This document shows positions 13,427 through 34,486 of a stretch of 64,000 bases of DNA, one piece after another (within the stretch, counting starts at the first letter, position 1; the number at the start of each line of letters is the position of its first letter). This DNA comes from Hyphomicrobiales bacterium. GTDB lineage: Bacteria > Pseudomonadota > Alphaproteobacteria > Rhizobiales > JAJFHC01. The position numbers and the translations under genes are program-made. The notes below the pieces were generated by a model. It did no database searches and was not told the DNA's origin. It was given only the letters and a program-made list of their open reading frames with translations. The stretch lies in contig CBDHYJ010000081.1 in assembly GCA_965275905.1 (NCBI GenBank), positions 88,392 through 152,391 of the forward strand, read 5' to 3'.

Positions 13427-14617
13427 CTATTGCTTCGTCTCCCGACCAAGCCGTTCAAGCAAGGAAGCACTCGATTTCCCGTACCGGTCCACCGGCGGCA
13501 AGTTGTGCTTGGCGCGAAGTTCATTCAACGCGGCGCGCGTTCTGCGCCCCCATATGCCATCGATCGGGCCTGGCCTGAAGCCGAGTTCCCTCAACTGAGA
13601 TTGCACGGATCGCAGCGTTTCACGTGATGGCCCGCGGAGTTTGATCGAACCGTTGACCGCATAAATCGAGCACACCGGATTGCCTGTCGTGACATTCCGT
13701 TGCAGCACCCGGTTGCACCGGTAGAGAGCATCAACTGTTGCATCGCGGTCGTTCCCCCAGGCGGTGGAGTATCCGTAATATCCGAACGGTCCAATCGCGA
13801 ATGCCTTCCGCCTCGCGCTGTTGCGGTAGTCCCGCCGAAACTCCCTGCGCGCGGCAGAGCCGATCTGCAGTCCGGTCAGATCCGATGTGTTCTCTTCCGG
13901 CTTTACGCCTGAGTATTCCTGGGCGATCGGTATAACGGCGGTGACCGCTGCGCGCACTTCCGGGTCCCAGGGGGCCGCAATCCGTCCCGCCCCCTCCAGG
14001 GACAGCCAGCTCCTGTTTTCGCCTTCAAAGCCTTCCGAGCAGGCCTCCGCGACCGACTGCTTTCGTTTGTATCTCAATTCGCGGCGCAGGAAGCGGTCCA
14101 CCTTCGGATCACCGACGAGCGCCAGCACAGGCACGTCTTGCGCAAGATTGACGGCGCCCTTGCGGCCGTAACCGCACACCGCTCCGGTCGTCACGACGCC
14201 AGCCAATCCGGTCTTGAGCCGCATCGCAAGCCACGCGCCCTCACCATGCCCCCAGACGTAGACCGGAAGATCCGGATGACGTTCCCGGATCACCGCCAGC
14301 GCGCTCTCGGTCTGACGCTCGCGCAACCGATAAACGCTTTCGCGCACGGGATTGGGCCAGGTACAGGAACGCCTTCGCCGCTTCTCGGCGAAACTGTCCG
14401 GCGCATAGACCTTGTAGCCGGAGCGTTCGAGGTGATCGAACCAGGCATGCACCCAACCCGTTGGTCTAAGGCCGCGGCAATCATGCAGGTGAAGCACAAT
14501 TCCGTTTTCCGCTTCTGCCGTCGACTGGAAGCCTCGCTCCAGGGTGATGTCAGCCTGCGCGGCAACAGGGGCCGCGAGCGCGGCAAGCACTACTCCGTAG
14601 CGCAATCGTCTTCCCAT
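13427..14617 (-). CDS. Exported dienelactone-hydrolase-like protein (catalytic Ser absent) with C-terminal peptidoglycan-binding domain
   Basis: Signal peptide; elbow reads WGHGEGA; PG_binding_1 motif VQSQLRELGFRPGPIDGIWGRRTRAAL. Confidence 0.7.
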   Translation of the reverse strand: MGRRLRYGVVLAALAAPVAAQADITLERGFQSTAEAENGIVLHLHDCRGLRPTGWVHAWFDHLERSGYKVYAPDSFAEKRRRRSCTWPNPVRESVYRLRERQTESALAVIRERHPDLPVYVWGHGEGAWLAMRLKTGLAGVVTTGAVCGYGRKGAVNLAQDVPVLALVGDPKVDRFLRRELRYKRKQSVAEACSEGFEGENRSWLSLEGAGRIAAPWDPEVRAAVTAVIPIAQEYSGVKPEENTSDLTGLQIGSAARREFRRDYRNSARRKAFAIGPFGYYGYSTAWGNDRDATVDALYRCNRVLQRNVTTGNPVCSIYAVNGSIKLRGPSRETLRSVQSQLRELGFRPGPIDGIWGRRTRAALNELRAKHNLPPVDRYGKSSASLLERLGRETKQ

Positions 14618-14684
14618 CCCGCCATACTCCTTTTTTCGCACTTGGCCCCCTGCCAGCAACGCTACCGATTGGTGTCGGACGAGT

Positions 14685-16151
14685 TCATTTGCATTGGGGC
14701 TGGTACCGCGCCAGACCCCAGCCAAAGACCGGATCCTTGCCCGGCGCCCCGAGATCGAGACTGTTTTCCCTGAGCACCCGGCGCACGTCACTGCTTGTCG
14801 TTCCTGCGTTATCGCCAATGATCTCCCCCGCCAGACCTGCAAGGTACGCGCTGGCAAAGGATGTTCCGGACCATAGCGACTTGTTGCGCGTTTTCGGCAG
14901 TGACAAACCTACGCCCGGCGCCACGAAGGAAATGTAATCGCCACGGTTTGCCTTGCGGTATGGTCTGAGCAGTTTGTCTACTGCAGACGCGGACAGGACA
15001 TTCTCGTAGGCACCCGGGAAAGCGGGCTTGGCATTTGGACCGCCGTTTCCGGCGGCCGCGACGATCGTGATACCGCGCGCGGCAACGCTCTCGATCGCCT
15101 TCTTGAGCAATGCGTTAGGCGGCCCACTGAGGCTCATATTGATCACATGAACATCTTGCCCGGTGAGCCAGTCAAGGGCCTGCAGCAGCGCGTCGGTCGT
15201 CGCCTTGACATCGTTTCCGCTCCTGTCGAACACATCCGAAGCGTACAACTGCGCGGCTGGCACGAGTCCGGCGAACTTGTCCGGAACGCTGCCGACGAGC
15301 AGGGCAGCAACGGCAGTCCCGTGCAACGTGGGCACCGGAATGGCGTCTTTCGCGAAACGCGCTGTCTTGATCTTGGCCTGATTGAGTGAAGGGTGTTTCA
15401 CATCGACGCCGGTGTCGACGATACCGATCCTGACGCCCTCGCCACACTCCGCCGTGGTCAACGGCCAGTTGACGAGGACATGACCGAAACAGTCTTTGCT
15501 GGCACAGGGCCCGGCGTTCAGACTGTAGGTGGCATTAGGCGATGCCGAGATATCCGGACGAGCAGAGCGCAGCAGACCCAGCGCTTCGACTGCGTCGTCA
15601 ATTTCTTCGCCGGCAAAAATCGTCATGGTTATGCCGATGTTGGGAAGCCTGACCTCCCGAATGGCTGTCAGGCCAAGTGCCTGCGCCGCATCGACGTCTT
15701 CCGCTCCCAGATCCAGCCCGATGACCTCGCGCCGCGCAGCATCGATTCCACCGCCGGAAGATGCACTGTCACCTGATGGGCCACGTGCCGAGCGGCCTGT
15801 GTTCGACCGGCCAATACCAAACAGGCCGAAGAACCCACCGGACCGCGTCTGTCCGGCGTTGCGGCCGCTGGACGCTCCGGAACCGTCATCACCATCGTCG
15901 CCGTCGTCGCCACCGTCGTCACCGCCGTCGCCATCGCCGTCACCGTCTCCATCCCCGTCGCCGTCGCCGTCCCCGTCGCCGTCTCCATCGCCGTCGCCAT
16001 CCCCGTCACCGTCAGCATAGGCCGGCGTCGTGCCGAAGACTTCCGACTGGACCGGCAACACGATTGCGGCAGCAAACACGAATCCGAAAAGAACGAAGAA
16101 TATGGCCGAAGCGCGACTCCGTGTTGTCCAGATATCCAGAAATTCATTCAT
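14685..16151 (-). CDS. Secreted S8 (subtilisin-like) serine peptidase with N-terminal Asp-Gly repeat
   Basis: Triad VDTG, HGTAVA, GTSFA; AAAGN oxyanion motif; DLGAPGKDPVFGWG; signal ending AYA. Confidence 0.93.
   Translation of the reverse strand: MNEFLDIWTTRSRASAIFFVLFGFVFAAAIVLPVQSEVFGTTPAYADGDGDGDGDGDGDGDGDGDGDGDGDGDGDGGDDGGDDGDDGDDGSGASSGRNAGQTRSGGFFGLFGIGRSNTGRSARGPSGDSASSGGGIDAARREVIGLDLGAEDVDAAQALGLTAIREVRLPNIGITMTIFAGEEIDDAVEALGLLRSARPDISASPNATYSLNAGPCASKDCFGHVLVNWPLTTAECGEGVRIGIVDTGVDVKHPSLNQAKIKTARFAKDAIPVPTLHGTAVAALLVGSVPDKFAGLVPAAQLYASDVFDRSGNDVKATTDALLQALDWLTGQDVHVINMSLSGPPNALLKKAIESVAARGITIVAAAGNGGPNAKPAFPGAYENVLSASAVDKLLRPYRKANRGDYISFVAPGVGLSLPKTRNKSLWSGTSFASAYLAGLAGEIIGDNAGTTSSDVRRVLRENSLDLGAPGKDPVFGWGLARYQPQCK
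15882..16013 (-). repeat. Coding (Asp-Gly)15 tract followed by GDD units
   Basis: GAY-GGN hexamers with mixed synonymous codons. Confidence 0.95.
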
Positions 16152-16216
16152 TTTGGTTTCACCAGATTTGTGGCCGGGACCGGGCCAACTATGGCAGCAG
16201 CCCTGCTCTCCGGAAC

Positions 16217-16245
16217 GACAACAAGCATAACGCATCTTTATTCCC
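16217..16245 (-). promoter_or_regulatory. ECF promoter copy 1 (S8 peptidase operon)
   Basis: GGGAAT-N16-TGTTGTC. Confidence 0.8.
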
Positions 16246-16287
16246 GCCGTGCCTCCACGACGGTGTCCGCTTCATCAAAAGAATCTT

Positions 16288-16316
16288 CGGAATAATCCAT
16301 CCGGCCAGCTGTTGTC
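16288..16316 (+). promoter_or_regulatory. ECF promoter copy 2 (DUF1611 gene)
   Basis: CGGAAT-N16-TGTTGTC. Confidence 0.8.
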
Positions 16317-16385
16317 GACGCAATCAACCCCTCGGTGAAACCCGAAATCCGAATGCAAAAAATGACCGCTGCAAAGGAGTCACTT

Positions 16386-17459
16386 ATGTCAAGCGCAGTC
16401 AATCTGAACAAGCCTGTCCCCGGCGCCGCCAAATGGGCGTTCACAACCCGCCGGGTCAGGCGCTGTGACGCCTCAGGCCTCAGCAGGAAACTCACAGAAG
16501 TCCGTTCGGGCGATCTGGTTCTGACGGAAGTGATCAAGATTGGTCAGCACAAGCGTCTGCAGCTTGCCGAAGGGCGACATTCCGACCTTTTTGATGGCGA
16601 CATCGTCGTCCTGACCTGTGGCGACCGCTATGCCCCGGATCAGTTCGAAGCGATCGCCGAGCTTGATCCGGAAAGCACCGATCTCGTCGCGGGTGGCGGT
16701 ATTGTCGGACGGGCCCGGAAATCGCACGGCAGAATGGCGACACCGACCCAACTCAAGCCCCTCGGCCTGCTGACGGATACCGACGGCAAGGTCATCAACA
16801 TCGAACGATACGCACTCCCCTTCAAACCGGAACGCTTCGACCTTCCTGTCATTGTCGTTGTCGGAACTTCGATGAATTCCGGCAAAACGACCACGGCATT
16901 CAGCCTGGCTCACGGCCTCAGCAAAGCCGGATACCGGGTCGCCGGGATGAAGGCTACGGGAACCGGCGCCTTCGGTGACTTCAACGCCTTCCGCGACGCC
17001 GGCGTTCCTATTGTTGCCGATTTCACGGATGTCGGGATGGCATCGACATATCGGCAACCTCTCGACCGTATTGAGAATGGTTTTGCCACCCTGGTCGCCT
17101 ACGCTGCCGCTTCGGGCGCGAACATCGCGGTCGTCGAACTTGCCGATGGTGTCTGCCAGTCCGAGACTGCGGAACTGCTGGATCGTCAGAGTTTCCGAAA
17201 CCGGATGTCGGGCCTGTTGTTTGCCGCCCCTGACGCCCTGAGCGTTGCCGGCGGAGTTACCCATCTGCGCAGCCTCGGTATTGAACCCCTCGCCGTTTCA
17301 GGCCTGGTCAGTTGTTCGCCGTTGGCTGCCGATGAAGCTGAAGCCCTGTCATCGATTTCGGTCGCAACAGCGAAACAGTTGTGCGACCCAGACTACGCCG
17401 CCACCCTGGTCGCCGGATTCATGGCGAATGGTGACCCGGAAAACCGCCGGGTCGCCTGA
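16386..17459 (+). CDS. DUF1611 domain P-loop protein
   Basis: GDRYAPDQFEA, Walker A-like GTSMNSGKTT, KATGTG, DFTDVG, ELADG; AAGGAG RBS. Confidence 0.85.
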   Translation: MSSAVNLNKPVPGAAKWAFTTRRVRRCDASGLSRKLTEVRSGDLVLTEVIKIGQHKRLQLAEGRHSDLFDGDIVVLTCGDRYAPDQFEAIAELDPESTDLVAGGGIVGRARKSHGRMATPTQLKPLGLLTDTDGKVINIERYALPFKPERFDLPVIVVVGTSMNSGKTTTAFSLAHGLSKAGYRVAGMKATGTGAFGDFNAFRDAGVPIVADFTDVGMASTYRQPLDRIENGFATLVAYAAASGANIAVVELADGVCQSETAELLDRQSFRNRMSGLLFAAPDALSVAGGVTHLRSLGIEPLAVSGLVSCSPLAADEAEALSSISVATAKQLCDPDYAATLVAGFMANGDPENRRVA

Positions 17460-17479
17460 AGAGTTTCCTCCTCCCCTCT

Positions 17480-17528
17480 GCGGTGAAGGCCTGGCTGTTG
17501 GGCCAGGTCTTCGCCGCCCCCTTTTTTT
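17480..17528 (+). terminator. Intrinsic terminator after DUF1611 gene
   Basis: GCGGTGAAGGCCTGGC/GCCAGGTCTTCGCCGC stem then T-run; preceded by CCTCCTCCC. Confidence 0.75.
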
Positions 17529-17700
17529 ATACTCTCCTGCGTCAAACATGACATCCGGGCGACCTGCCGATTGTTGTAGGCTGGTGGCCCCGCGCACGCC
17601 ATCGGCGCCGGCACCTTCTGACGCAGGGCAAAGTCCGGCAAAGCTCCATACAATCCAACGGTCAGGTCAGCGAAAAAATGACTGAATGTGTCAAAAAAAT

Positions 17701-17729
17701 GGGAATTTATTCTGCGACCGACTGTTGTC
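17701..17729 (+). promoter_or_regulatory. ECF promoter copy 3 (likely autoregulatory, sigma operon)
   Basis: GGGAAT-N16-TGTTGTC upstream of the sigma gene. Confidence 0.8.
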
Positions 17730-17772
17730 CCAGCGTAACAGCCGCAATCATGCGTCAAGGCGATCACCAGAG

Positions 17773-18285
17773 ATGACCGACACGAAATCACATCTGATCG
17801 CGATGTTGCCGCGATTGCGACGGTTCTGCAGAGGACTGACCGGCTCCGAAGTCGAGGGCGACGAGCTGACTCAGATGGCCTGCGAACGGGCACTATCCCG
17901 ACTGCATTTGTGGCAGGAAGGAACACGTCTCGACAGCTGGCTCTACAAAATAGCGCAGAACCTTTGGATCAACCGGATGCGTCAGGAAAAGGCGCGCAAC
18001 ACGGTGGCGGACATGGATCAGTTGGCAACAGTCGTCGGCGGCGACACGAGAACCGAAGTGGAGACGCGAAATCTCTACGGCAAGACCATGGCCGCCATGG
18101 GTGAGCTTCCCGACGATCAGCGTGAGGTTCTGATACTGGTTTGTGTCGAGGGCTTCTCCTACAAGGAAGCCGCCGAGACACTGGATCTGAAGGTCGGCAC
18201 CGTAATGAGCCGCTTGTCGCGCGCACGGGTGCGGCTGTGGGAGATGGTTCATGGCGAACACACTGCGCCTCGTCAGTCGCAATAG
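17773..18285 (+). CDS. ECF RNA polymerase sigma factor
   Basis: LPRLRRFC, WLYKIAQNLWIN, region 4 SYKEAAETLDLKVGTVMSRLSRAR. Confidence 0.95.
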   Translation: MTDTKSHLIAMLPRLRRFCRGLTGSEVEGDELTQMACERALSRLHLWQEGTRLDSWLYKIAQNLWINRMRQEKARNTVADMDQLATVVGGDTRTEVETRNLYGKTMAAMGELPDDQREVLILVCVEGFSYKEAAETLDLKVGTVMSRLSRARVRLWEMVHGEHTAPRQSQ

Positions 18286-18293
18286 GAATCACG

Positions 18294-19082
18294 ATGATGA
18301 CCACAAAGATCGACGATGAAACATTGATGGCGTATGTCGACGGCGTTCTGCCTGACGAGCAACACGCCGAAGTGACCGCACAGATTCTTCAGGATCCGGA
18401 GTTGCGCGCACGGGCCGACATGCTTCGTGGCGGTGCCGCGCTAGCCCGGCAGGCACTGGACGCGACATTGAGAGAACCGCTGCCTGAGTCCCTGTTGCAA
18501 CCTTTCGACACAAAAAATGCGGAAGAAGAAGACCGGAATGTCGTTGATTTTGCGAAAGCGCGACAATCGCGCTGGAGCACACCATTCCAGGGATTGGGGA
18601 TGGCAGCCGCGGCCTGCGTAACACTTGTTGCCGGAGGTCTGATCGGTTTCTGGCTGCACGGCACCAGCTCTGATTCCGGTGCTCTCGACCCCCGCATTGC
18701 GCAGGTGCTGACGACGGCGAACAGCGGCACGGTGGTGCCGATTTCAACCGGAAATGACTCCGCGGACGTGTTGCCCCTTCTGACTTATGTCGACAACAGG
18801 GGACGGCACTGCCGCCACTACGTTCACCGTGAATCGTCGCCGGACAGCAAACAGGCCTTTGATGGCGTCGCATGTCGTGAGCCTTCGGGCAACTGGTCGC
18901 CGGTCATAACCGTGATGATCGACGCGGCGGACAGCAGCGAGACGGTGTACACGACGGCAAGCGGCGGAATGACGTCGCCGGTTGACGATTTCATCAAAGG
19001 CTCGATCTCCGGAGCCCCCGTTGTCGGACCGGCGGAACGCGACCTGATCAGGGACGGTTGGAAAAAGTCGATTGCGAACTAG
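18294..19082 (+). CDS. Transmembrane anti-sigma factor
   Basis: DDETLMAYVDG N-terminus, single TM, periplasmic domain with CRHY...VACR. Confidence 0.85.
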   Translation: MMTTKIDDETLMAYVDGVLPDEQHAEVTAQILQDPELRARADMLRGGAALARQALDATLREPLPESLLQPFDTKNAEEEDRNVVDFAKARQSRWSTPFQGLGMAAAACVTLVAGGLIGFWLHGTSSDSGALDPRIAQVLTTANSGTVVPISTGNDSADVLPLLTYVDNRGRHCRHYVHRESSPDSKQAFDGVACREPSGNWSPVITVMIDAADSSETVYTTASGGMTSPVDDFIKGSISGAPVVGPAERDLIRDGWKKSIAN

Positions 19083-20930
19083 ATGCTCAAGCGGACCCGT
19101 CGAAAGAGTATTATCGAACGAATGCAGAGATGGCTCTCATCCGGCCTCTTCAGTAGCGCGCCAGGACCAGTAACGGCTGGCCTTCTCGTCGCCCTGGTCA
19201 TGATCGCTCTGGCAATGGACCCCGAGGCCAACGCCGCCAAGTCGTCGCGCGAGGATGTGACCGCTGCAAGCGATGCACAGAACAAGGCGGCCGCTCAGAA
19301 CATGGGCGCCATCACGTCGGCGCTGTGGCACGGCACAGCCTTGCCCGAAAGAATTCCTGCAATCCTTAAACGTGACGACGTGGCCGTCTACCTGGCGGTG
19401 CGGAAGCAGGGCATCAGGATCGCGGACATCTGGACCCGGCCGGCAACCGGAATGGACGCCTTGCGAAGCGCGATCGACCAGGTGAAACGCAGCAGCCAGG
19501 CCGCCGCGACCGGAGAGGTGGCGGAGCTTGTTTTTGCGTATGCATTCAGGGCCGTTCCCCCGCCCAAGCAGAAGGCGGTTTTCTCGAATCTGTCACGAGG
19601 CATTTACGGTATCGAAATCAAACACGGCGAAACGCTGCAGCGCTTCAGCCCTACCCAGATGATCGCATCGAACCGCTCATTCGATCGCGTGATCAAGCGT
19701 TTCTCTGAACGCCACAAGGTCGACGTGGTCAACAATGCCGACGCACTCTCCATCAGGCGCTTTGCCGCTGAACAGTATCTCATACACCTCAAGTCGAACC
19801 ATCGTTCGGTGCGCATGTTTCGGGGCAACCGTCTGGTCCGCGATGATTTCGTGACACAGGGTGCAATCGCGTCTCTCGCGCAAAGGATGTCGGACTGGAT
19901 GATCCGGAATGTCCGTGACAGCGGGCGCATGACGTACAAATACTGGCCGAGTTCAGGCAAGGAATCGTCGGCGAACAACATGATCAGGCAGTGGATGGCT
20001 ACTGTCTCGCTTATCCGTGTCGGGCGTCACTACGGTGATCAGTCCGTATTCGAGACAGCGGGACGGAATATCGCCTACAACCTTCGCAAATTTTACATGG
20101 ATGACGGCACGTTCGGCTCAGTCGAATATGGCGGCAAGGCGAAACTCGGTGCGATCGCCCTCGCCGCGCTTGCGCTTCACGAGCACCCCGGCGGAGAGGC
20201 GCTCAGAACCATCGAACGCAGGTTGCGGAACACGGTCCTGAGGCTCCAGGCTGACGACGGTTCGTTCCGGACATTTCTCAAGCCGGCGAGCCGAAACGAC
20301 AATCAGAATTTCTATCCGGGCGAGGCACTGGTCTATCTGGCAAGTGTCTATGCGCAGACACAGGACGGCGATCTGCTCAAGAGGATCAGGAAGAGCATCG
20401 ATTATTACTGGCAGTGGCATCAGGACAACCGGAATCCCGCCTTCGTCCCCTGGCATACGATGGCCTACAGCCAGGTGTGGCGACAGACGCGCGACTCCGA
20501 TCTTGTCGACAAGATCTTTGCCATGAACGATTGGCTCCTCGGAATGCAGCAGCCCGCGTCAGAGCGCTTTCCCGATACCGACGGTCGTTTCTATGACCGT
20601 AAACGCCGCCAGTTCGGGCCGCCGCACGCCTCATCCACCGGCGTCTACCTGGAGAGCCTTATTCAGGCGTTCCGCGTCGCGCGGGAAACAGGAGACAACG
20701 TTCGGACCGAGAAGTACCGTATCGCCATTCTCCGCGGACTTCGCAGCCTGATGCAGCTCGAGTTCAGAGACAATGTCGACATGTTTTACGTCTCCAAACG
20801 TGATCTCGTTCGTGGCGGCATCCGCACGACGGTTTACGACAACACGATCCGCGTCGACAACGTTCAGCACAATCTGATGGCCGTTCTGGAAATCCTGAAC
20901 GCATTCGAACCCGCCGATTATCTGCCCTGA
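19083..20930 (+). CDS. Membrane-anchored or exported protein with AMMECR1-like N-domain and alpha/alpha-toroid-like C-domain
   Basis: Hydrophobic N-terminal segment; VYLAVRKQG and RGIYGIEI...FSP; C-terminal NNMIRQ, FYPGEA, IRVDNVQH; ATG abuts anti-sigma stop. Confidence 0.6.
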   Translation: MLKRTRRKSIIERMQRWLSSGLFSSAPGPVTAGLLVALVMIALAMDPEANAAKSSREDVTAASDAQNKAAAQNMGAITSALWHGTALPERIPAILKRDDVAVYLAVRKQGIRIADIWTRPATGMDALRSAIDQVKRSSQAAATGEVAELVFAYAFRAVPPPKQKAVFSNLSRGIYGIEIKHGETLQRFSPTQMIASNRSFDRVIKRFSERHKVDVVNNADALSIRRFAAEQYLIHLKSNHRSVRMFRGNRLVRDDFVTQGAIASLAQRMSDWMIRNVRDSGRMTYKYWPSSGKESSANNMIRQWMATVSLIRVGRHYGDQSVFETAGRNIAYNLRKFYMDDGTFGSVEYGGKAKLGAIALAALALHEHPGGEALRTIERRLRNTVLRLQADDGSFRTFLKPASRNDNQNFYPGEALVYLASVYAQTQDGDLLKRIRKSIDYYWQWHQDNRNPAFVPWHTMAYSQVWRQTRDSDLVDKIFAMNDWLLGMQQPASERFPDTDGRFYDRKRRQFGPPHASSTGVYLESLIQAFRVARETGDNVRTEKYRIAILRGLRSLMQLEFRDNVDMFYVSKRDLVRGGIRTTVYDNTIRVDNVQHNLMAVLEILNAFEPADYLP

Positions 20931-20934
20931 GCAC

Positions 20935-23592: not shown

Positions 23593-23605
23593 GGCAGGCC
23601 CTCCT

Positions 23606-25053: not shown

Positions 25054-25944
25054 TCACACGGCGGACGCATTCCAGGATCGCGCCTCGTCGACGATCCAGT
25101 CCCTGAAGGCCCGCAGCGCCGGATTGGACAGTGCATCAACGGGATAGACCAGGAAGTAGCCGTACTCGCTCAGGGCATCTGAAGAGATGTAAAACAGATT
25201 GCCGGCGTCAAGCTCGGGGCGGACAAGTTCGTCATAGAGCGCAACCCCCTGGCCATCGATCACGGCCTGAACGCGGACATTGGGATCAGGGATCACGAGC
25301 CCGTCCCGCGCCGACCGGTAAGGCAGGCCCGCCACCCGGTGCCAGTCCCGCCACGCCGGACTGCCCTCCCGGTCGCGCAGCAGGGTGAGCCCGGGCAGGA
25401 CGGCTTCCAGTCCCCTTTCGCCGACGTCTTCGGCGATCGCTTGGCCGGCGGTCGGAATGGCCGGGCACCGGAACAGGCGCTCCACCTCCATGTCCCTCCA
25501 GTCACCGTTGCCCCACCGTATCGCCATGTCGATGGCCTGCGCACGCAGGTCGAACAGATCGATCAGGGGCTGCAGCCGCAGTGTTATGTCGGGATGGTCC
25601 GCCATGAAGGTCATCAGACGCGGCGACAGCCAGCGCGACGCGAAGTAAGTCGCCATGCCGATGGTTATGCTGTCGGCCCTCTCCTCCCTCAGGCGCCCGA
25701 TCTCCTGCTCGACATCGTGGAATGCCGCCTGGGAGACGTGCCACAGCCGTTTGCCTTTCTCGGTCAGCGCGATACCGCGATGCAGACGGGTGAAGACCGG
25801 AAACCCGAGTTCCTCTTCAAGGCGCGCGATCTGGTAGCTGACCGCGCCCTTGGTCAGATTCAACTCGTCCGCCGCGGTGGTGAAGCTTGAATGCCTCGCC
25901 ACGACATCGAATACGCGAAGGTTTTCATAGGATCGAAAGCGCAT
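25054..25944 (-). CDS. LysR family regulator (GcvA-like)
   Basis: SFTTAADELNLTKGAVSYQIARLEEELG; WLSPRL. Confidence 0.95.
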   Translation of the reverse strand: MRFRSYENLRVFDVVARHSSFTTAADELNLTKGAVSYQIARLEEELGFPVFTRLHRGIALTEKGKRLWHVSQAAFHDVEQEIGRLREERADSITIGMATYFASRWLSPRLMTFMADHPDITLRLQPLIDLFDLRAQAIDMAIRWGNGDWRDMEVERLFRCPAIPTAGQAIAEDVGERGLEAVLPGLTLLRDREGSPAWRDWHRVAGLPYRSARDGLVIPDPNVRVQAVIDGQGVALYDELVRPELDAGNLFYISSDALSEYGYFLVYPVDALSNPALRAFRDWIVDEARSWNASAV

Positions 25945-25952
25945 CCATTCCG

Positions 25953-25995: not shown

Positions 25996-26108
25996 CGCGC
26001 ATGAAGCCTGTGATTTGCTGCATTTGCGTTCAGGATTGCCGGCAGCCCGGAAACTTGCGTCGACTCTATAGGATTTTCGAACAGAATATTTGATCGGGTG
26101 GATTGACG

Positions 26109-27680
26109 ATGATCGGCCTGGAAACCACAGAGCATGCACGTTCACACGCACCGCACGGTAACCGCCGCGGCGGCAGAACGGCCCGCGTAGCGAGGCGCGC
26201 CGCGGGGAGAGCCCCGACGGCGCCAGCGGTGCTGAAGCGAAACGTGCCGGTGTACAACCTGCTCGACGAGGAAGAACTCCGGAGGCTTGAAGCGCAGGCC
26301 GACTGGATCCTGAAGGAGATCGGCGTCGAGTTTCACGGCGACGAGGAGTCGCTCTCCCTGTTTCAGGACGCCGGCGCGTCCGTTGACGGGCACAGGGTCA
26401 GATTTGACGAGGGACTCGTCCGGTCGCTCTGCCGGACCGCCCCGCAACAGTTCCGGATGCATGGCCGGGATCCGGCGCGGACCATCACGGTCGGCGGCGA
26501 TCATGTCGTTCTGACACCGGCATACGGTCCGCCCTTCGTCACGGACCTCGACGATGGGCGCCGTTACGCAACGATCGAGGACTTCCGGAACTTCGTGAAG
26601 CTGGGTTACGCGACGCCCTGGCTGCATCATTCGGGCGGCACGGTCTGCGAACCGGTCGACATACCGGTGAACAAGCGTCATCTCGACATGGTCTACGGGC
26701 ATCTGCGCTTCTCCACCAAGCCGTTCATGGGGTCGGTGACCGCCCCGGAGCGGGCCGAGGATTCGATCTCCATGGCGCGTATCGTTTTCGGCGACGCGTA
26801 CCTGGACGATCATTGCGTCATCCAGGGCAACATCAACGTCAATTCACCCCTGGCGTTCGACGACACAATGACCGGCGCGCTCAAGGCCTACGCCCGCGCC
26901 AATCAGGGCGTGGTGCTGTCACCGTTCATCCTGGGCGGCGCCATGGGCCCGGTGACGCAGCCGGCCCTCATCGCACAATCCCATGCGGAAGCCATGGTCG
27001 GCATCGCCCTCACCCAGCTCGTGCGGAAGGGCGCACCCGTCGTTTACGGCAATTTCCTCACGACCATGAACCTCAAGACGGGGGCGCCGACCTTCGGCAC
27101 GCCGGAAGCCACGCTTTCGACCTACGCCATCGGCCAGCTATGCCGGCGTCTCGGCCTGCCCCTGCGGTGCGGCGGTCACCTCACGGCGTCGAAGGTGGCG
27201 GACGGACAGGCCATGCAGGAGTCGGCCGACAGCATGAACGCCGGGCTGATGGCGGGCGCCAACTTCATACTGCACGCGGCAGGCTGGCTGGAGGGCGGCC
27301 TCTCCATGGGATACGAGAAGTTCGTTATCGACCTCGACCGCTGCGGCATGATGCACCGCGCCGCCGCGGGCCTCACTCTGAATGAAAATGAACTGGGTAC
27401 GGCCGCATTCCGGCAGGCCGGCCCAGGCGAGAACTTCTTCGGAACGGAACATACCCTCGAGAACTTCGAAACGGCCAATTACATGTCCGAGCTCGCCGAC
27501 ACCCGGTCCTTTGAGCAGTGGTCCGAGGACGGCGCCGAGACGATCGAAGTTCGCGCCAACCGGCAGTGGAAGAAGATGCTGGCCGAATTCGAAGCGCCGG
27601 CCATCGATCCCGCCATTGATGAAGCTCTCCTTGATTTCGTGGAGCGCAAGAAACGCTCCGCCCCGGACCAGTGGTTCTGA
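26109..27680 (+). CDS. Trimethylamine methyltransferase (MttB) family protein, non-pyrrolysine
   Basis: NVNSPL, GAMGPVT, GAPTFGTPE, HAAGWLEGGL; no in-frame amber codon. Confidence 0.93.
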   Translation: MIGLETTEHARSHAPHGNRRGGRTARVARRAAGRAPTAPAVLKRNVPVYNLLDEEELRRLEAQADWILKEIGVEFHGDEESLSLFQDAGASVDGHRVRFDEGLVRSLCRTAPQQFRMHGRDPARTITVGGDHVVLTPAYGPPFVTDLDDGRRYATIEDFRNFVKLGYATPWLHHSGGTVCEPVDIPVNKRHLDMVYGHLRFSTKPFMGSVTAPERAEDSISMARIVFGDAYLDDHCVIQGNINVNSPLAFDDTMTGALKAYARANQGVVLSPFILGGAMGPVTQPALIAQSHAEAMVGIALTQLVRKGAPVVYGNFLTTMNLKTGAPTFGTPEATLSTYAIGQLCRRLGLPLRCGGHLTASKVADGQAMQESADSMNAGLMAGANFILHAAGWLEGGLSMGYEKFVIDLDRCGMMHRAAAGLTLNENELGTAAFRQAGPGENFFGTEHTLENFETANYMSELADTRSFEQWSEDGAETIEVRANRQWKKMLAEFEAPAIDPAIDEALLDFVERKKRSAPDQWF

Positions 27681-27739
27681 CGGTCGTCGCCGCCGATCCC
27701 GATCGATGCGACCGGCCATCTGCAGAAGGAACAATCGAA

Positions 27740-28843
27740 ATGACTGAATCGACGCGCGAATCCGCCCTCGCCTCACGACACCGCGCCCTGGGATCGGATC
27801 TTGAGGACTGGAACGGCATGGGCACGGCCTGGAGCTACAGCACGAACCCGAACGACGAGCATGATGCCGTGCGCGAGGCGGCCGGCCTGTTCGACATGTC
27901 GCCGCTGAAAAAAGTGTTCCTGAGGGGCCCGGATGCGGAGAAAGTCGCCGACCATGTCATGACCCGCGACATGTCGCGGGTGACACCGGGAAAAGCCGCG
28001 TACGGCGCCGTCCTGACCGAACGCGGAACCGTCTGTGACGATGCCATCGTCGCCAATAACGGCGGTGATGAATGGATGCTCTGCCACGGCTCGGGCGAGA
28101 GCATGGAGCGCCTGACGGAATCCGCGCAAGGGCTGAATGTCGACGTCGAACTCGACGACGACCTGCACAACATTTCGCTGCAGGGTCCGAAAGCACTGAG
28201 CCTGCTCAATGCCAATTCGTCGACTGACCTGTCCGCGCTGCCCTATTTCGGGCACCACGGGACCGAACTGTTCGGTCACAAGTGCCACGTCTCCCGGACC
28301 GGCTATTCCGGCGAGCGCGGCTACGAGATTTTCGCCGACCGTGCGGTCGTCGGCAACCTCTGGGACAATATCCTCGGTCACGGGGAAGCGGACGGCGTCA
28401 TGCCGTGTTCGTTCGCGGCCCTGGACAAGGTCCGGGTCGAGGCGGGCCTGCTTTTCTTCGGCTATGACATGACGGACGAGCATTCCCCCTGGGAGGTCGG
28501 CCTCGGGTTCACCGTCAGCCGCAAGAAGCCGGACTTCCGGGGCCGGAACGCGGCGTTCGACCTTGAAGGCAGGGAACGCTTCGTGCTGGCGGGCATCAGC
28601 GCCGATCATGATGACATGCTTGCCGGCGGTGAACGGCTGCTTCATGACGGCACGGACGTTGGCGTGGTCAACAGCCCGGCCTGGTCGCACCGCATGAACA
28701 AGTCCCTCGCCCTCGTTCATCTGAGCCCTTCTGCCGCGGCCGCCGGCACGACACTTCAGGTCCTGGGCGACGGGATCGACTGCTCCGCGGTCGTTGAAAC
28801 CATTCCCTTCTTCGATCCCGGCAAGACAAGGACGCACGCCTAG
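27740..28843 (+). CDS. Aminomethyltransferase (GcvT-like) family protein
   Basis: AGLFDMS, LQGPKA, SRTGYSGERGYEI, RVEAGL, PFFDP. Confidence 0.92.
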   Translation: MTESTRESALASRHRALGSDLEDWNGMGTAWSYSTNPNDEHDAVREAAGLFDMSPLKKVFLRGPDAEKVADHVMTRDMSRVTPGKAAYGAVLTERGTVCDDAIVANNGGDEWMLCHGSGESMERLTESAQGLNVDVELDDDLHNISLQGPKALSLLNANSSTDLSALPYFGHHGTELFGHKCHVSRTGYSGERGYEIFADRAVVGNLWDNILGHGEADGVMPCSFAALDKVRVEAGLLFFGYDMTDEHSPWEVGLGFTVSRKKPDFRGRNAAFDLEGRERFVLAGISADHDDMLAGGERLLHDGTDVGVVNSPAWSHRMNKSLALVHLSPSAAAAGTTLQVLGDGIDCSAVVETIPFFDPGKTRTHA

Positions 28844-30355: not shown

Positions 30356-30386
30356 AGGGAGTTTGGTTCAGTTTGAACCTAAGCGC

Positions 30387-31254: not shown

Positions 31255-31335
31255 GGGAGTCTCCCTTTTGTCGTCACCGTTGTCTGGACGAACCGCATAA
31301 ACGCCCCACGGTCCGAGTTGCTGCCTTGCTCGTTC

Positions 31336-31474
31336 GGCCCTCCCCACTCCCGGATCAGACCGTTCCGGGGGCATCCATCAATGGACGATCGTCCCGGGAG
31401 TGGGATGGCCAGCCCCCCACTTAGCCGACGGCTAAGTCGGCCGGAACTGGTGGAGGTAAGCCCGCTGGCTTCCG
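31336..31474. other. Highly structured intergenic element
   Basis: Stem CCCACTCCCGG(31343)/CCGGGAGTGGG(31394); palindrome ACTTAGCCG-A-CGGCTAAGT (31419-31437). Confidence 0.5.
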
Positions 31475-31565
31475 TTACGTTAATGGGAAGTTGACGCTGC
31501 GATAACAAGGGCGGGAGCCCCGGAAACCTGAAGAATCGCCGCAGAAGGCACCGATTGATGTTCTT

Positions 31566-31603
31566 TTAACGCGCCATTGACGCGCGTTTGACGGAGGTTT
31601 CAC
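31566..31603 (+). promoter_or_regulatory. Four direct repeats TT(A/G/C)AC at 11-bp period (OmpR/CtrA-type site array)
   Basis: TTAAC-N6-TTGAC-N6-TTGAC-N6-TTCAC. Confidence 0.55.
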
Positions 31604-31684
31604 TGCCGAGGGCTAAATGACAGATGTAGGCAACAAACAGAGCAACCGGCATCTGCCCCGGGAGGGGGCAAAAAGGAGAAGACG

Positions 31685-31855
31685 ATGATCGCGGCCTCTA
31701 ATCAGACAGCAGTTCACGCTCAGGACAACGCCATTTTTGCGCTTATCGTGAAAGCCGCAACCGTGTCAGCCCAAACGGTAGATCGTTGGCTTACGCAGCG
31801 CAGCGCACTGCGCCGCCACTTTGCATATGAAACCGGATCCAGCCGGATCCACTGA
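31685..31855 (+). CDS. Small protein (56 aa)
   Basis: AAGGAG RBS, MIAASNQTAVHAQDNAIFALIVKAATVSAQTVDRWLTQRSALRRHFAYETGSSRIH, terminator downstream. Confidence 0.6.
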   Translation: MIAASNQTAVHAQDNAIFALIVKAATVSAQTVDRWLTQRSALRRHFAYETGSSRIH

Positions 31856-31933
31856 GGCCGGCAACCTCGTTTAGTTGCCAAAACGTCAGCGGAATCTGTC
31901 CCGAGCCCTCGGTTCTGCTGGCGCAAACACCGG

Positions 31934-31965
31934 AACCGCCCCCTTTCCCTCAAGGGGGCGGTTTT
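31934..31965 (+). terminator. Intrinsic terminator
   Basis: Perfect 12-bp stem AACCGCCCCCTT/AAGGGGGCGGTT ending in a T-run. Confidence 0.8.
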
Positions 31966-32095
31966 GCGTTGAAGGCATGCACAAAAAGTAGGCGGCAGTG
32001 ACACCCGATCAGGTCACCGCCACCTCAGGCCGATTGCCCCCGGTCGGGCTCCTCAGACGCCAGAATCGCGGAGGCATGTGCTTTGTGACGTGAAG

Positions 32096-32686
32096 TCAGG
32101 CAGACTGGGCGACCTCAACCTCATCACCGTAAACTTCGGCGTAGCGCTGCAGAGGCAGCATGTCGAAAATCATGTGGATGCGCTCCTGTTCGCCATCGTT
32201 ATACGCCTCGTGCATCTCATTGTTGTCGAACCACCACAGCTCGCCCTCACGCATCCGGATCTCCTCGTCGCCACACTTCATGTAGCTGCCGGCCGAGCTC
32301 TGGAGGATGAGATGATAGCGATCGCGAACCCGGTAATACTCGCCGCGGTCGATATGGGGATACACCCGCCGGCCCGGCATCAGCCTGACGATCTTGGCCC
32401 GCCCCATCTCGGCGTAGTGCTCGGTCGCAAACTCCTGAAGAAAACGGCGGGCGAGAACGAACTTCTTTGAAGAGGTCGTGTATCGGCTCTCATGCACATC
32501 ACGGCGTTCTCGGCCATTGATCTTGGATTTGACCAGCCCTCGCAGCGGTATGGCCTGCGCCTCACGCTGGACAGCAATCTTGTCCTGGCGTCCTGTACTC
32601 AATCCCCAGGCGTCGGGTACCGATGCGATCTCGTCCAGGAACGGCTTCACGTCGACGCCATCATTCAATTTGCGGAAGTACTTCAT
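32096..32686 (-). CDS. Aspartyl/asparaginyl beta-hydroxylase domain protein (Fe/2-oxoglutarate)
   Basis: YPHIDRG (HxD), WWFDN..MHEA, RIHMIFD. Confidence 0.9.
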   Translation of the reverse strand: MKYFRKLNDGVDVKPFLDEIASVPDAWGLSTGRQDKIAVQREAQAIPLRGLVKSKINGRERRDVHESRYTTSSKKFVLARRFLQEFATEHYAEMGRAKIVRLMPGRRVYPHIDRGEYYRVRDRYHLILQSSAGSYMKCGDEEIRMREGELWWFDNNEMHEAYNDGEQERIHMIFDMLPLQRYAEVYGDEVEVAQSA

Positions 32687-32726
32687 GGGTCTTCACTCCT
32701 CTGGCTGGCTTGTCATTGGGTTGAAA

Positions 32727-34439
32727 TCAGTTCACGAGGCGTAACGGATGGTCCGTGGCGACCAATGCCTTGACCGCCTCGGCATCCAAGACCTCCAGCT
32801 TTCCGTTTTCGAGGTGCACAACACGATCCGCCGTCGCGGCCCGGGCGGGATCATGTGTGATGTAGATCACCGTGCAGCCGGCCTTCTCGAGAGTCTGATC
32901 GAGCAGCAAATTCGCGCCGCGGTCGAGATTGGCATCGGCCTCGTCGAGCAGGAGCACCCGCGGCTTGACCAGCAGGGCGCGCGCGAGAGCGATGCGCGCG
33001 CGTTCGCCGGTTGACAATCCCTCACCCTTCTCAGAAACCCGCGTCTTGAGGCCCTTGGGCAAACTCTCGACGAGGCCATCCAGGCCCAGTTCGGCAATCA
33101 CAGCCCGGATCTCGTCGTCGGTGCGCTCCTCGGCACCGTATGTCAGATTGAAGCGCAAGGTGCCGCGCAGCAGAGGAAGATCCGGTGAAACGATCGCAAA
33201 TGCGCTGCGAATGTCGTCCCAGACGGTTTCTTTCAGATCCTCACCGTCGAGCAAGACCTTGCCGCTTTCCGGCTCGTAGATGCCAGCGATCACGCGCAGC
33301 AGTGTGGACTTGCCGGCGCCGTTCGGGCCGGTAACGGCAATGCGCTCGCCAGGACTGATCGCGAGGTTCACCTCGTCGAGCGTTTGTCCGAACGAAACGT
33401 CTTTGAGAACCACCTGGCCCGGACCGTCGGAGAGTGACGCACCCGTGTTGTCCCGATGGTTGCGGCCGACAGACGGCAAGGCCAGGAGCCGTTCCTGTTT
33501 TTCCCGGGCTATGATGGCGCCGTTCCAGTATTCGTAGACACGACCAAGGTCCTGAAGCCGGGGCGCAAGCAGTCCGGCGACAACCATTGCGGCGACCACC
33601 GCGCCGGGACTCGCATGCCCCATCGAGACCTGCACGGCGCCGACAAACAGGGCACAGACGCCGGCCAGGCTGCCGCTGGCCTCGGACAGCGCGCGGAGCA
33701 AGCCCACCACGCGTGCCCTTCCGATCATGGCCAACCGCAAACGCTGGCTCAGGCGCCTGAATCTCTGTCTTTCACGGTCTTCCTGTCCGAATGCCTCGAC
33801 GACGCCGATATGCGAAACGCGGTCGTTCAGCATCGCCGCGAGCCTGCCGCGGCGACGACGGGTCTCGCGCGTCTGCACCCGCAGGCGCGGGCCGATCAGG
33901 AAAGCAAGCGTCAGAGCCACTGTGACGGCCACGGCAACGGCCATCGCGACCACCGGCTCAACAAAGCTGAGCGCGGCGATGGCGAGGAAGGCCGCAAGGC
34001 CACTGACCGTCAGGCGGGCAAGTCCCAGACTGACCCATTGTCGCAGAGCTGTGAGGTCACCGACGAAACGCAGCACGATGGCGCCGCGACTCATCTGGCG
34101 CGCACCCTCCGCGCCGATCATGGCAATGTGACGGAACAGCGTGAGCCGGACGGAATGAATGTAACTCTGGCCAAGTTCCTCGGCATCGACCTGGCTGCGC
34201 CACCGCAACCAGGCTGTCACGATGATGCAGAGTGTCAGACCGCCAGCGAAAACGCCCGCCGACGCAAAGTCCGCCGCAGCGCTGGAGAGCACGAGAGTGT
34301 CAAATCCGCGCTTGACCAGCAATGCGGTTAGAACGGCCGTCCCCGCCTGGGCCACTCCATTGGCGACCAGATACGAAAAACTAAGGCGGCGTTTTCCTGA
34401 TAGCACCGTCGGCAACGGCATGAGCAACCTCGCTGGCAT
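32727..34439 (-). CDS. ABC exporter, fused TMD and NBD
   Basis: TM domain, GPNGAGKST, LSTGE signature, LLLDEA, ITHD; start uncertain (34439 or 34421). Confidence 0.93.
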   Translation of the reverse strand: MPARLLMPLPTVLSGKRRLSFSYLVANGVAQAGTAVLTALLVKRGFDTLVLSSAAADFASAGVFAGGLTLCIIVTAWLRWRSQVDAEELGQSYIHSVRLTLFRHIAMIGAEGARQMSRGAIVLRFVGDLTALRQWVSLGLARLTVSGLAAFLAIAALSFVEPVVAMAVAVAVTVALTLAFLIGPRLRVQTRETRRRRGRLAAMLNDRVSHIGVVEAFGQEDRERQRFRRLSQRLRLAMIGRARVVGLLRALSEASGSLAGVCALFVGAVQVSMGHASPGAVVAAMVVAGLLAPRLQDLGRVYEYWNGAIIAREKQERLLALPSVGRNHRDNTGASLSDGPGQVVLKDVSFGQTLDEVNLAISPGERIAVTGPNGAGKSTLLRVIAGIYEPESGKVLLDGEDLKETVWDDIRSAFAIVSPDLPLLRGTLRFNLTYGAEERTDDEIRAVIAELGLDGLVESLPKGLKTRVSEKGEGLSTGERARIALARALLVKPRVLLLDEADANLDRGANLLLDQTLEKAGCTVIYITHDPARAATADRVVHLENGKLEVLDAEAVKALVATDHPLRLVN

Positions 34440-34457
34440 TCATGACAGATTCAGCCA

Positions 34458-34486
34458 GACAACGGTCGGGGCGCGGAATTATTCCC
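34458..34486 (-). promoter_or_regulatory. ECF promoter copy 4 (ABC exporter/hydroxylase operon)
   Basis: GGGAAT-N16-CGTTGTC. Confidence 0.75.

Follow-up and report, generated by a model that had tools for sequence, protein, structure and literature searches.

A putative ECF26-type regulon, dispersed over several transcription units, that includes an acidic-tract subtilase and an aspartyl β-hydroxylase-family oxygenase

Introduction

The closest described relative of the system reported here is RpoE6 (EcfR6), an extracytoplasmic function (ECF) sigma factor of Sinorhizobium meliloti. In the text of Lang et al. (2018, PMC6180224), RpoE6 is placed in group ECF26, with a group consensus of GGAATA at −35 and GT at −10; RpoE6-dependent promoters are of the GGAATA...CGTT type, and their consensus is likened to that of ECF15. 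A protease gene in divergent orientation to rpoE6 is called a "widely conserved" arrangement there, and no functional role was found for RpoE6. The main text of the ECF reclassification paper (Casas-Pastor 2021) makes no mention of a protease, a hydroxylase or DUF1611 for ECF26. We have analysed a stretch of 64,000 nucleotides (nt) from a Hyphomicrobiales bacterium (assembly GCA_965275905.1, contig CBDHYJ010000081.1, positions 88,392 to 152,391; hereafter the window), where a sigma factor of this kind lies near a subtilase, a DUF1611-like P-loop protein and p615, a protein of an unnamed family, and where a distant operon encodes an ATP-binding cassette (ABC) exporter and an oxygenase of the aspartyl/asparaginyl β-hydroxylase family.

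The window shares with S. meliloti an operon of sigma and single-pass anti-sigma factor, a GGAATA...GTT promoter and autoregulation, putative in the window (Lang et al. 2018, PMC6180224), and also an S8 protease with an Asp-rich tract (poly-Asp, and divergently encoded, in S. meliloti). The S. meliloti locus reads VOC, S8 peptidase, sigma, anti-sigma, hypothetical protein, DUF6065, in agreement with the SMa0139–SMa0148 order given in that paper. It carries VOC and DUF6065 genes and not a DUF1611-like one, whereas the window has a dispersed regulon and an (Asp-Gly)n tract. We considered SMa0148 as the DUF1611-like gene and rejected it: the position holds the DUF6065 protein, which is unrelated to the hydroxylase, and a DUF1611-like homolog is seen neither on the S. 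meliloti locus map nor in Sinorhizobium among the nine plasmid records that hold one. Neither the hydroxylase nor p615 occurs at the one S. meliloti locus searched (14.5 kb); the rest of that genome was not searched.

For the oxygenase, three groups of enzymes offer comparisons. Animal ASPH hydroxylates Asp and Asn in EGF-like domains of proteins bound for secretion; it shares PF05118 with the window enzyme and is its best solved relative. Unlike ASPH, the window enzyme has the full His-x-Asp...His triad and no TPR or membrane parts, and the substrate proposed for it is a tract of low complexity in place of a folded EGF domain. LpxO and OlsC belong to the same Pfam family and have an envelope-stress-linked role in membrane remodelling, and an MsbA-like exporter lies near the window gene; unlike them, the window protein is without membrane segments, and it scores weakly with the LpxO model of NCBIfam (21 bits, cut-off 500, E 1.1e-4). 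CinX of cinnamycin is a bacterial Asp hydroxylase of a ribosomal peptide. SmaO, with SmaX, is described as another bacterial case of Fe(II)/2-oxoglutarate Asp hydroxylation in ribosomal peptides, clustered with an exporter and proteases (Kim et al. 2025, PMC12186529). Set against SmaO and CinX by description, not by sequence, the window differs in that the candidate substrate is the tail of a 488-aa enzyme. For the P-loop protein the nearest named families are DUF1611, which includes the D-glutamate N-acetyltransferase DgcN, and dethiobiotin synthetase; about 45 residues match, and the conserved N-terminal 150 residues are without a known relative.

Results

A promoter-like motif stands before four units of the window

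The motif GGAAT-N16-YGTTGTC has four exact matches in the window, against 0.03 expected from shuffles, and none of 100 shuffles reaches four. This bears out the preliminary description of the locus, which had reported four copies with one and the same 16-nt spacer; the motif is 28 nt long, and the 29-nt spans given there are one base too long at one end. Its further claim, that each copy is intergenic and faces a gene start, one of them that of the sigma gene, holds once gene starts are corrected. The subtilase starts at ATG 16151, 65 nt downstream of its putative promoter, where the start of the open reading frame (ORF) finder, 16235, would run through that promoter; the DUF1611-like gene starts at ATG 16386, behind an AAGGAG box, the sigma gene at ATG 17773 and the exporter gene at ATG 34439 or the in-frame ATG 34421. 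No sigma-70-like promoter was predicted in these spacers.

All eight genes of the four units are kept in a genome of the same genus with about 80% DNA identity (G001), and all four sites stand there at orthologous positions, with identical GGAAT and YGTTGTC boxes and differing spacers. The whole genome of the window (5,391,093 bases, both strands) has eight strict matches where base composition gives an estimate of about 0.8, and G001 has eight against none for the reversed pattern. The preliminary description had suggested a genome scan with a position weight matrix (PWM) of the four sites. We derived one from their core positions and applied it to the genome and, as a control, to its reversed form; it returned 8 hits against 0 at 20 bits or more, 9 against 1 at 18 bits and 15 against 5 at 16 bits. 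A PWM that included the spacer was overfitted, retrieving only its own training sites. Three more sites, on other contigs, are also conserved in G001 (Table 1). The eight genes in four units first proposed are therefore part of something larger: the four units do share the motif, and at least three additional putative promoters lie elsewhere, so that by comparison of the two genomes this promoter type, specific to the sigma factor, appears to stand before at least seven units. On contig C79 two sites stand in tandem, one before the gene for a carboxylate transporter and one before that for a glycerate kinase, so that the regulon may also have a metabolic branch.

The sigma factor is 42.5% identical to that of the VOC/S8/sigma/anti-sigma locus on the S. 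meliloti megaplasmid and 42–51% identical to sigmas in the same context elsewhere in the order. The anti-sigma gene starts 9 nt past the sigma stop; its product matches NCBIfam NF052375 with E 6e-10, below the family cut-off, and full-length homologs come after sigma homologs in the order. The S8 gene lies 1.6 kb upstream of sigma on the opposite strand with one gene between, and is directly divergent in many homolog loci. Judged by its relatives and by the fit of the window motif to the published ECF26 consensus, the window sigma appears to be an ECF26-type factor like RpoE6. The ECF26-like triad of sigma, anti-sigma and subtilase was correctly recognized at the outset, and agrees with the RpoE6 group consensus and locus order as described for S. 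meliloti (Lang et al. 2018, PMC6180224). The regulon is drawn from comparison, which supports the reading that the four sites behave as promoters of the adjacent ECF sigma.

In many relatives the sigma gene holds, at its end and immediately before the anti-sigma gene, a second motif of the ECF26 type (L121 9732, L126 9498, L130 9849, L132 9764, L250 12671 and L251 7350). It resembles the internal ecfR6 promoter reported, in the part of the S. meliloti account that we draw on, for that species; with the strict pattern no such site is seen at the end of the window sigma gene.

The dispersed units form one cluster in relatives

We searched 401 genomes of the order with the anti-sigma factor and analysed 20 kb around 20 full-length hits. 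A subtilase is present at 16 of the 20 sigma-homolog loci and a DUF1611-like homolog (38–45% identity) at nine. The GGAATA...CGTT motif precedes the DUF1611-like gene at all nine, and this gene is directly followed by an ABC-type gene of 516–621 aa in all eight that were mapped. In two genomes (G215 and G144) subtilase, sigma, anti-sigma, DUF1611-like protein, hydroxylase, hydrolase and ABC protein are encoded in one run of about 8 kb, with ECF26-type motifs before the subtilase, sigma, DUF1611-like and hydroxylase genes. The hydroxylase was found in 8 of the 400 other genomes of this sample. G031, G090 and G135 have hydroxylase, hydrolase, DUF1611-like and ABC genes consecutively, preceded by the motif in G031 and G090; directly upstream of the hydroxylase gene itself the motif is seen in G144, G031 and G090. 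The sigma/subtilase pair is present in each of five further hydroxylase-bearing genomes, on another contig in four (G031, G090, G135 and G384).

The same genes recur on plasmids. A Paracoccus liaowanqingii plasmid carries S8, sigma, a hypothetical protein in the anti-sigma position, an α/β hydrolase, a "dethiobiotin synthase" (DUF1611-like) and an ABC protein; the arrangement on a P. albus plasmid is similar; and a Sulfitobacter plasmid has, consecutively, an aspartyl/asparaginyl β-hydroxylase 65% identical to that of the window, a hydrolase-like gene, a DUF1611 protein and an ABC transporter. Among 80 metagenome contigs with hydroxylase homologs of 57–78% identity (0.72 Mb in total, many contigs of only 1–5 kb), the hydrolase is found in 39, the DUF1611-like gene in 33 and the ABC gene, up to 65% identical and standing immediately 5' of the hydroxylase, in 31. 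The sigma factor is present on 13 of the contigs, the subtilase on 9 and the anti-sigma factor on 2, and p615 is on none. Homologs of the exporter, hydroxylase and DUF1611-like genes thus do cluster with this sigma type elsewhere, as the preliminary description had asked, and the distant ABC–hydroxylase operon, which it had assigned to the module, appears to belong with the rest: its homologs stand side by side near this sigma type, with the same motif, in G215 and G144, on Rhodobacterales plasmids and on metagenome contigs. By this comparison the genes that are contiguous in the relatives are distributed here over at least five transcription units; the window has four of these, and the hydrolase unit is on another contig.

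That hydrolase (C14:34972–35973) has an upstream ECF26-like site conserved in G001; it is 55% identical to the gene after the ABC gene in G050 and 26–28% identical to the plasmid hydrolases.

Domain assignments of the P-loop protein, exporter and oxygenase

DUF1611 membership of the P-loop protein had been proposed on sequence alone, and part of that label stands. Pfam matches positions 9–50 of 201 of the DUF1611 C-terminal domain, 43 residues, with 27 bits against a cut-off of 25 (E 3.4e-6); the DUF1611 N-domain has no match in the window protein, which falls short of full membership, and hence we call it DUF1611-like. A profile of its family finds only the BioD P-loop in the PDB (E 0.005). 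Homologs of 38–59% identity sit in the conserved cluster, labelled by NCBI either "DUF1611 domain-containing protein" or "dethiobiotin synthase".

The exporter stays below the cut-offs of all specific NCBIfam subfamilies and is 57–65% identical to the ABC protein encoded immediately 5' of the hydroxylase in the metagenome loci. When the ABC genes that follow DUF1611-like genes were compared with the window's genome, the window exporter was the best hit for five of eight. The other three (L121, L126 and L127) found no match, not even to ATPase domains; a plasmid homolog of the ABC-type gene is annotated merely as "transmembrane domain-containing", and the ATPase half may be degenerate in some lineages.

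The iron-binding residues of the oxygenase, His111, Asp113 and His159, are invariant in 14 homologs and align with the His residues of ASPH; its closest solved relatives are the oxygenase domains of human ASPH (E 2.6e-4, about 95 residues aligned). The oxygenase has no clear signal peptide. A short Asp-rich precursor gene was sought in the hydroxylase operons and the idea dropped, with none apart from the subtilase tracts and none downstream of the window gene; nor was an HD-domain partner, a lanthionine synthetase or a short precursor gene seen at the window hydroxylase operon or the hydroxylase loci.

The subtilase carries a conserved acidic tract

The window subtilase is built of an N-terminal hydrophobic segment, an (Asp-Gly)n tract (coding 15924–16013), a Gly/Ser-rich and basic linker, and the catalytic domain. 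An acidic tract, counted as at least 10 Asp or Glu in a 20-residue window before the catalytic part, is present in 18 of the 26 linked subtilases with a complete upstream part, and several more of the 26 carry shorter poly-Asp runs. In the linked subtilases an Ala-x-Ala-Asp-Asp motif regularly precedes the start of the tract, and behind the tract come first a Gly-rich and next an Arg-rich stretch; the S. meliloti protease (P0242) has the same layout, poly-Asp tract included. In the subtilases of L257–L260, L250 and S. meliloti the Arg-rich stretch is strongly basic, giving a built-in polyanion/polycation pair.

At the hydroxylase-bearing loci the subtilase tracts are the sole Asp-rich coding features. 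Within the order, hydroxylase-bearing genomes have alternating Asp-Gly/Ser tracts and those without the hydroxylase have mostly homopolymeric Asp: the median fraction of Asp followed by Asp is 0.18 (9 subtilases) versus 0.82 (14 subtilases). These small samples of related genomes give no more than a hint that tract type tracks hydroxylase presence.

Downstream of the subtilase lies a gene for a secreted protein with a peptidoglycan-binding domain (Table 1). It is 82% identical in G001 and has no homolog in any other locus examined, including the 80 metagenome loci; it was seen in this genus only. Convergent with it is a gene for a membrane protein of the di-iron desaturase/hydroxylase family (12350–13405, plus strand; NCBIfam GntB-like, E 1.1e-34, below cut-off), of which a 26%-identical homolog stands directly after the ECF26-linked subtilase in G031 (L257 3221–4099).

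The p615 family keeps company with (Gly-Asp)n proteins

The p615 gene starts at the base after the anti-sigma stop. It had been described as an AMMECR1-like fusion, a label that does not survive: the window protein has no match to PF01871, one of 28 family members reaches it at E 0.15, and in the Atlas cluster of the homologue P0020 the AMMECR1 tag is carried by 12–13% of members, beside tags for C5-epim_C, GH127 and GH88, a remote likeness at most. No Pfam or NCBIfam family matches p615, a profile search of PDB sequences was empty at E up to 10, and Pfam on the 28 members gave weak hints of an α/α-toroid type only; an α/β domain at the N-terminus joined to an α/α toroid would be expected. The family is large and widely spread, with at least 1036 relatives at E ≤0.001 among 8000 candidates scored, 42–57% identity across phyla and many invariant His, Asp, Glu, Arg and Tyr residues. 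An N-terminal hydrophobic segment is present in 43 of 78 homologs and missing from 35. The window p615 has the segment, preceded by positive charges, and is therefore probably exported, although the annotated 576-aa form starts inside the segment.

A scan of species genomes gave 352 p615 loci, of which 80 (1.1 Mb) were kept. A hydroxylase homolog 46–52% identical to that of the window is fused or adjacent to p615 in 13 of them, as a single ORF of 759–838 aa in 12 cyanobacteria and as adjacent genes in one Hyphomicrobiales metagenome-assembled genome (MAG). In a class-wide sample the hydroxylase occurred in 3 of 400 other genomes, with p615 adjacent in 2 of the 3. ORFs in which (Gly-Asp) runs of three or more make up 12 residues or more are found in 29 of the 80 loci, most of them immediately beside p615; as background, such runs occur at two places in the window's own 5.39 Mb genome and nowhere in the 20 sigma loci (0.39 Mb). 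The association extends over at least eight phyla, and the loci come from Cyanobacteria, Planctomycetota, Myxococcota, Chloroflexota, Actinomycetota, Bacillota, Alphaproteobacteria and Verrucomicrobiota-related and Ignavibacteria-type MAGs. The tract-bearing neighbours are varied, including small secreted proteins, adhesin-like proteins and an amidase. In cyanobacteria, G523 and G079 a gene for a (Gly-Asp)n protein lies directly upstream; in G523 it encodes a lipoprotein and is immediately 5' of the hydroxylase gene.

Two stronger statements were dropped. The hydroxylase is not a constant companion of p615, five genomes with p615 and (Gly-Asp)n proteins having given no match to the window query; nor is p615 a regular part of the ECF26 cluster, as a profile search of ORFs from 103 loci returned one remote relative (L125). 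This relative, at the ECF26 locus of G118, is a secreted 361-aa protein encoded divergently from sigma, whose remote homology is to the C-terminal half of p615 (hhalign 95.4%); the other 102 loci have none. As far as these loci show, p615 and the peptidoglycan-binding protein are additions to the cluster by this genus.

Outside the window, a gene for a 1723-aa protein (C75:89998–95169, minus strand) has two long (Gly-Asp)n runs (coding C75:93925–94173), the sole other (Gly-Asp)n coding place in this genome. It adjoins HlyD-type and ABC type I secretion genes, and no ECF26 motif was seen upstream of it.

Other genes near the regulon

The genes between the two parts of the regulon in the window (LysR, MttB-type methyltransferase, GcvT-like, flavoprotein, BNR and SH3 proteins) are unrelated. 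The MttB-family methyltransferase (739 bits) and GcvT-like aminomethyltransferase genes (26103–28843, plus strand), with a divergent LysR gene (25054–25944, minus strand), look like an ordinary methylamine or betaine demethylation unit. On the P. albus plasmid (L159 3347–5215) an HTTM-domain protein and a DUF393 protein are encoded about 1–3 kb from the hydrolase/DUF1611/ABC cluster; HTTM is, as annotated, the family of the vitamin-K-dependent Glu carboxylase, another enzyme family making calcium-binding acidic residues. On the Sulfitobacter plasmid (L158 5628–6799) a second putative 2-oxoglutarate/Fe(II) oxygenase (TIGR02466/PF13759) and a DUF4399 protein are encoded just upstream of the Asp-hydroxylase-like gene.

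Table 1. Coordinates of the genes and motif sites; positions preceded by a contig handle (C) lie in the same genome outside the window
Feature	Position	Strand	Remarks
Peptidoglycan-binding protein, secreted	13427–14617	−	C-terminal PG_binding_1 domain; downstream of subtilase
S8 subtilase, secreted or membrane-anchored	14685–16151	−	488 aa; PF00082 Peptidase_S8, 112 bits, profile positions 1–288/288
Putative ECF26-type promoter, subtilase operon	16217–16244	−	−35 GGAATAA, −10 TGTTGTC; exact motif; same motif before subtilase homologs elsewhere
Putative ECF26-type promoter, DUF1611-like gene	16289–16316	+	Exact motif; back to back with subtilase promoter
P-loop protein, cytoplasmic (DUF1611-like/dethiobiotin-synthetase-like)	16386–17459	+	Weak DUF1611_C and CbiA matches; uncharacterised N-terminal domain
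Intrinsic-terminator-like hairpin	17480–17517	+	17 pairs and T run; between DUF1611-like unit and sigma unit
Putative autoregulatory ECF26-type promoter, sigma/anti-sigma/p615 operon	17702–17729	+	Exact motif; similar motif 5' of most sigma homologs in the order
ECF sigma factor, ECF26/RpoE6-like	17773–18285	+	170 aa; Sigma70_r2 and Sigma70_r4_2 only
Anti-sigma factor, single-pass	18294–19082	+	N-terminal anti-sigma domain, one membrane helix, periplasmic C-terminal domain
p615, unnamed family	19083–20930	+	615 aa; N-terminal hydrophobic segment
Fe(II)/2-oxoglutarate oxygenase, aspartyl/asparaginyl β-hydroxylase family	32096–32686	−	196 aa; PF05118, 64.8 bits against cut-off 22.6; cytoplasmic
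ABC exporter, one chain	32727–34439	−	ABC_membrane then ABC_tran; start possibly ATG 34421
Putative ECF26-type promoter, ABC exporter/Asp-hydroxylase-like operon	34458–34485	−	Exact motif
ECF26-type site	C35:73906		Before small secreted protein; conserved in G001
ECF26-type site	C79:82349		Before glycerate kinase; conserved in G001
ECF26-like site	C14:34874		Ends GTTGTA; before 333-aa serine-hydrolase-like protein; conserved in G001
ECF26-type site	C79:80691		Before DASS/CitMHS-type carboxylate transporter
Strict match	C66:37939		MlaC-like gene 402 nt away; not conserved in G001
Strict match	C72:2383		Looks intragenic

Discussion

The best explanation, which we hold with moderate confidence, is an ECF26 (RpoE6-like) regulon with a dispersed cluster and an oxygenase acting on the subtilase tract. 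The ECF26-type sigma would read promoters of the form GGAATAA-N15/16-YGTTGTC before the genes for the acidic-tract S8 subtilase, the DUF1611-like P-loop protein, the ABC exporter, the aspartyl β-hydroxylase-family oxygenase and the α/β hydrolase, each dispersed transcription unit having presumably retained its own sigma-dependent promoter. What can be read directly from sequence and comparison is the motif and its conservation, the clustering, the acidic tracts and the association of p615, hydroxylase and (Gly-Asp)n proteins. From these we infer that transcription starts from the sites, and likewise what the signal is, what the hydroxylase modifies and what p615 does. An envelope signal would release sigma from the membrane anti-sigma factor; the cytoplasmic oxygenase would act on the subtilase precursor ahead of its export and hydroxylate Asp in the (Asp-Gly)n tract; exported p615 would bind or further process the tract; and the P-loop protein, hydrolase and exporter would act in the same pathway. 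We suggest oxygenase action on tract Asp, with p615 acting afterwards, because two oxygenase clades each adjoin genes for secreted proteins with Asp-rich low-complexity tracts, and because the acidic tracts are conserved. Taken by itself, hydroxylation of Asp residues in acidic tracts by the oxygenase is a tentative proposal, somewhat more open to doubt than the account as a whole.

Several observations weigh against this explanation. Poly-Asp subtilases occur in 14 of 16 genomes without the hydroxylase, and therefore the tract does not need it; the trend in tract type is weak in the metagenome set (median 0.56), and the genomes behind it are few and related. All 13 hydroxylase-linked p615 homologs are without the N-terminal hydrophobic segment, unlike the window p615, and the window p615 and hydroxylase are therefore probably in different compartments. 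The gene for p615 is found in none of the 80 hydroxylase metagenome loci and in 1 of 40 relatives, and the hydroxylase was not found, with the window query, in five genomes that have p615 and (Gly-Asp)n proteins. The hydroxylase clade of the window has its closest ties to the hydrolase, P-loop and ABC genes, and in many cases a subtilase is absent from the surrounding 10 kb (9 of the 80 metagenome loci, many of them short, have one), so that a substrate made or handled by these three would be equally natural; and the explanation leaves the roles of the P-loop protein, hydrolase and exporter unaccounted for. Promoter use at the sites, too, is argued from comparison.

The tie of the hydroxylase to the hydrolase, P-loop and ABC genes is what an alternative with the same regulon builds on. 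Here the hydroxylase, P-loop protein and hydrolase would produce or remodel a membrane lipid or small molecule, to be carried over the inner membrane by the ABC exporter. Its nature could be that of an Asp-derived compound or, as with LpxO and OlsC, of a hydroxylated lipid, and the acidic-tract subtilase would be a separate effector of the same stress response. We think this possible, though on the unlikely side. In many genomes and contigs the genes for hydroxylase, hydrolase, P-loop protein and exporter stand closely packed on one strand as an operon, and all three enzymes are without clear signal peptides in this genome; the Pfam family of the hydroxylase includes lipid hydroxylases, and the ABC protein resembles MsbA-type and type I exporters, below their cut-offs. 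Against this alternative, the hydroxylase is soluble, 196 residues long and without the membrane segments of LpxO, and human protein Asp hydroxylase matches it at least as well as LpxO does, that match itself being weak. In addition, the second hydroxylase clade is fused to p615 beside (Gly-Asp)n proteins with no exporter, P-loop protein or hydrolase nearby, and the pair of acidic-tract subtilase and sigma is also present in all five hydroxylase-bearing genomes tested. The preliminary description had thought of an exported modified amino acid or peptide, and this may be kept as one of two live readings.

A role of the subtilase in signalling, which would be compatible with either account, strikes us as improbable. 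Regulated proteolysis of other anti-sigma factors supplies the analogy: the membrane-proximal polyanionic tract would sense divalent cations or cationic peptides, and the protease would cleave the periplasmic domain of the anti-sigma factor and so release sigma. Of the neighbours of this sigma type the protease is the most constant, at 16 of 20 loci and in the S. meliloti arrangement described by Lang et al. (2018, PMC6180224), and the order of hydrophobic segment, Ala-x-Ala-Asp-Asp, acidic tract, Gly-rich stretch, Arg-rich stretch and catalytic domain is conserved. With the protease gene under sigma's own promoter, however, such a loop would be a runaway positive feedback.

The EcfG general-stress sigma reads GGAAC-N16-CGTT. 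It is highly improbable that the four matches arose by chance, belong to a dispersed repeat or serve as promoters for another sigma such as EcfG: the RpoE6 consensus does resemble that of ECF15 in the published account (Lang et al. 2018, PMC6180224), and two of the eight genome-wide strict hits are weak, one looking intragenic and one not conserved in G001, but four sites stand against 0.03 expected with no hits in controls, the spacers vary but the boxes are conserved, T is invariable as the fifth base and an AA extension is usual, all sites face gene starts, and in at least 20 loci of the order the motif goes together with this sigma type.

Returning to the favoured account of an oxygenase that acts on the subtilase tract, a wider form of it can be drawn, which we offer as speculative and rather doubtful. 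Poly-Asp and (Gly-Asp)n tracts, templated in the genes of secreted proteins in many phyla, would be substrates of a dedicated modification system in which an ASPH-family oxygenase makes β-hydroxy-Asp prior to export and p615 is a tract-specific partner, fused to the oxygenase in cyanobacteria and periplasmic elsewhere; in Alphaproteobacteria the system would be wired to an ECF26 envelope-stress sigma and decorate the tail of a subtilase. If true, the cell surface would bear a polyanion that binds metals strongly. To our knowledge, bacterial peptidyl β-hydroxy-Asp is otherwise known only from a few peptide natural products.

How much of this is new can be stated with some precision. The core triad and the promoter type are already published as ECF26/RpoE6-like, and the "undescribed system" of the preliminary description is to that extent too strong: the RpoE6 regulon of S. 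meliloti, with the protease and hypothetical proteins, has been measured, although the published text (PMC6180224) reports no function for it. We found no description in the literature of the four-gene hydroxylase operon as part of an RpoE6-type regulon; the supplements of the reclassification paper (Casas-Pastor 2021) may hold ECF26 neighbourhood tables. Neither the acidic tract as a hallmark of the protease nor the association of p615, hydroxylase and (Gly-Asp)n proteins was found described, and a literature search for Asp-Gly or Gly-Asp repeats gave, among the matches listed, unrelated papers only, the SmaO/SmaX paper excepted.

ECF26/RpoE6-type sigmas are common in Alphaproteobacteria, and the published regulon study, in the text available, gave RpoE6 no function (Lang et al. 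2018, PMC6180224). What this sigma type carries along, an acidic-tail subtilase and a four-gene operon for a P-loop protein, an exporter, an Asp-hydroxylase-like oxygenase and a hydrolase, leads to a concrete biochemical hypothesis. The locus also illustrates that a regulon can stay intact while its genes disperse, each piece keeping its own promoter, an arrangement that neighbourhood-based annotation would miss. Finally, in cyanobacteria, Alphaproteobacteria and other phyla the Asp-hydroxylase family and the 600-residue family of p615 are met repeatedly in the company of (Gly-Asp)n or poly-Asp tracts, which makes Asp hydroxylation of low-complexity tracts directly testable.

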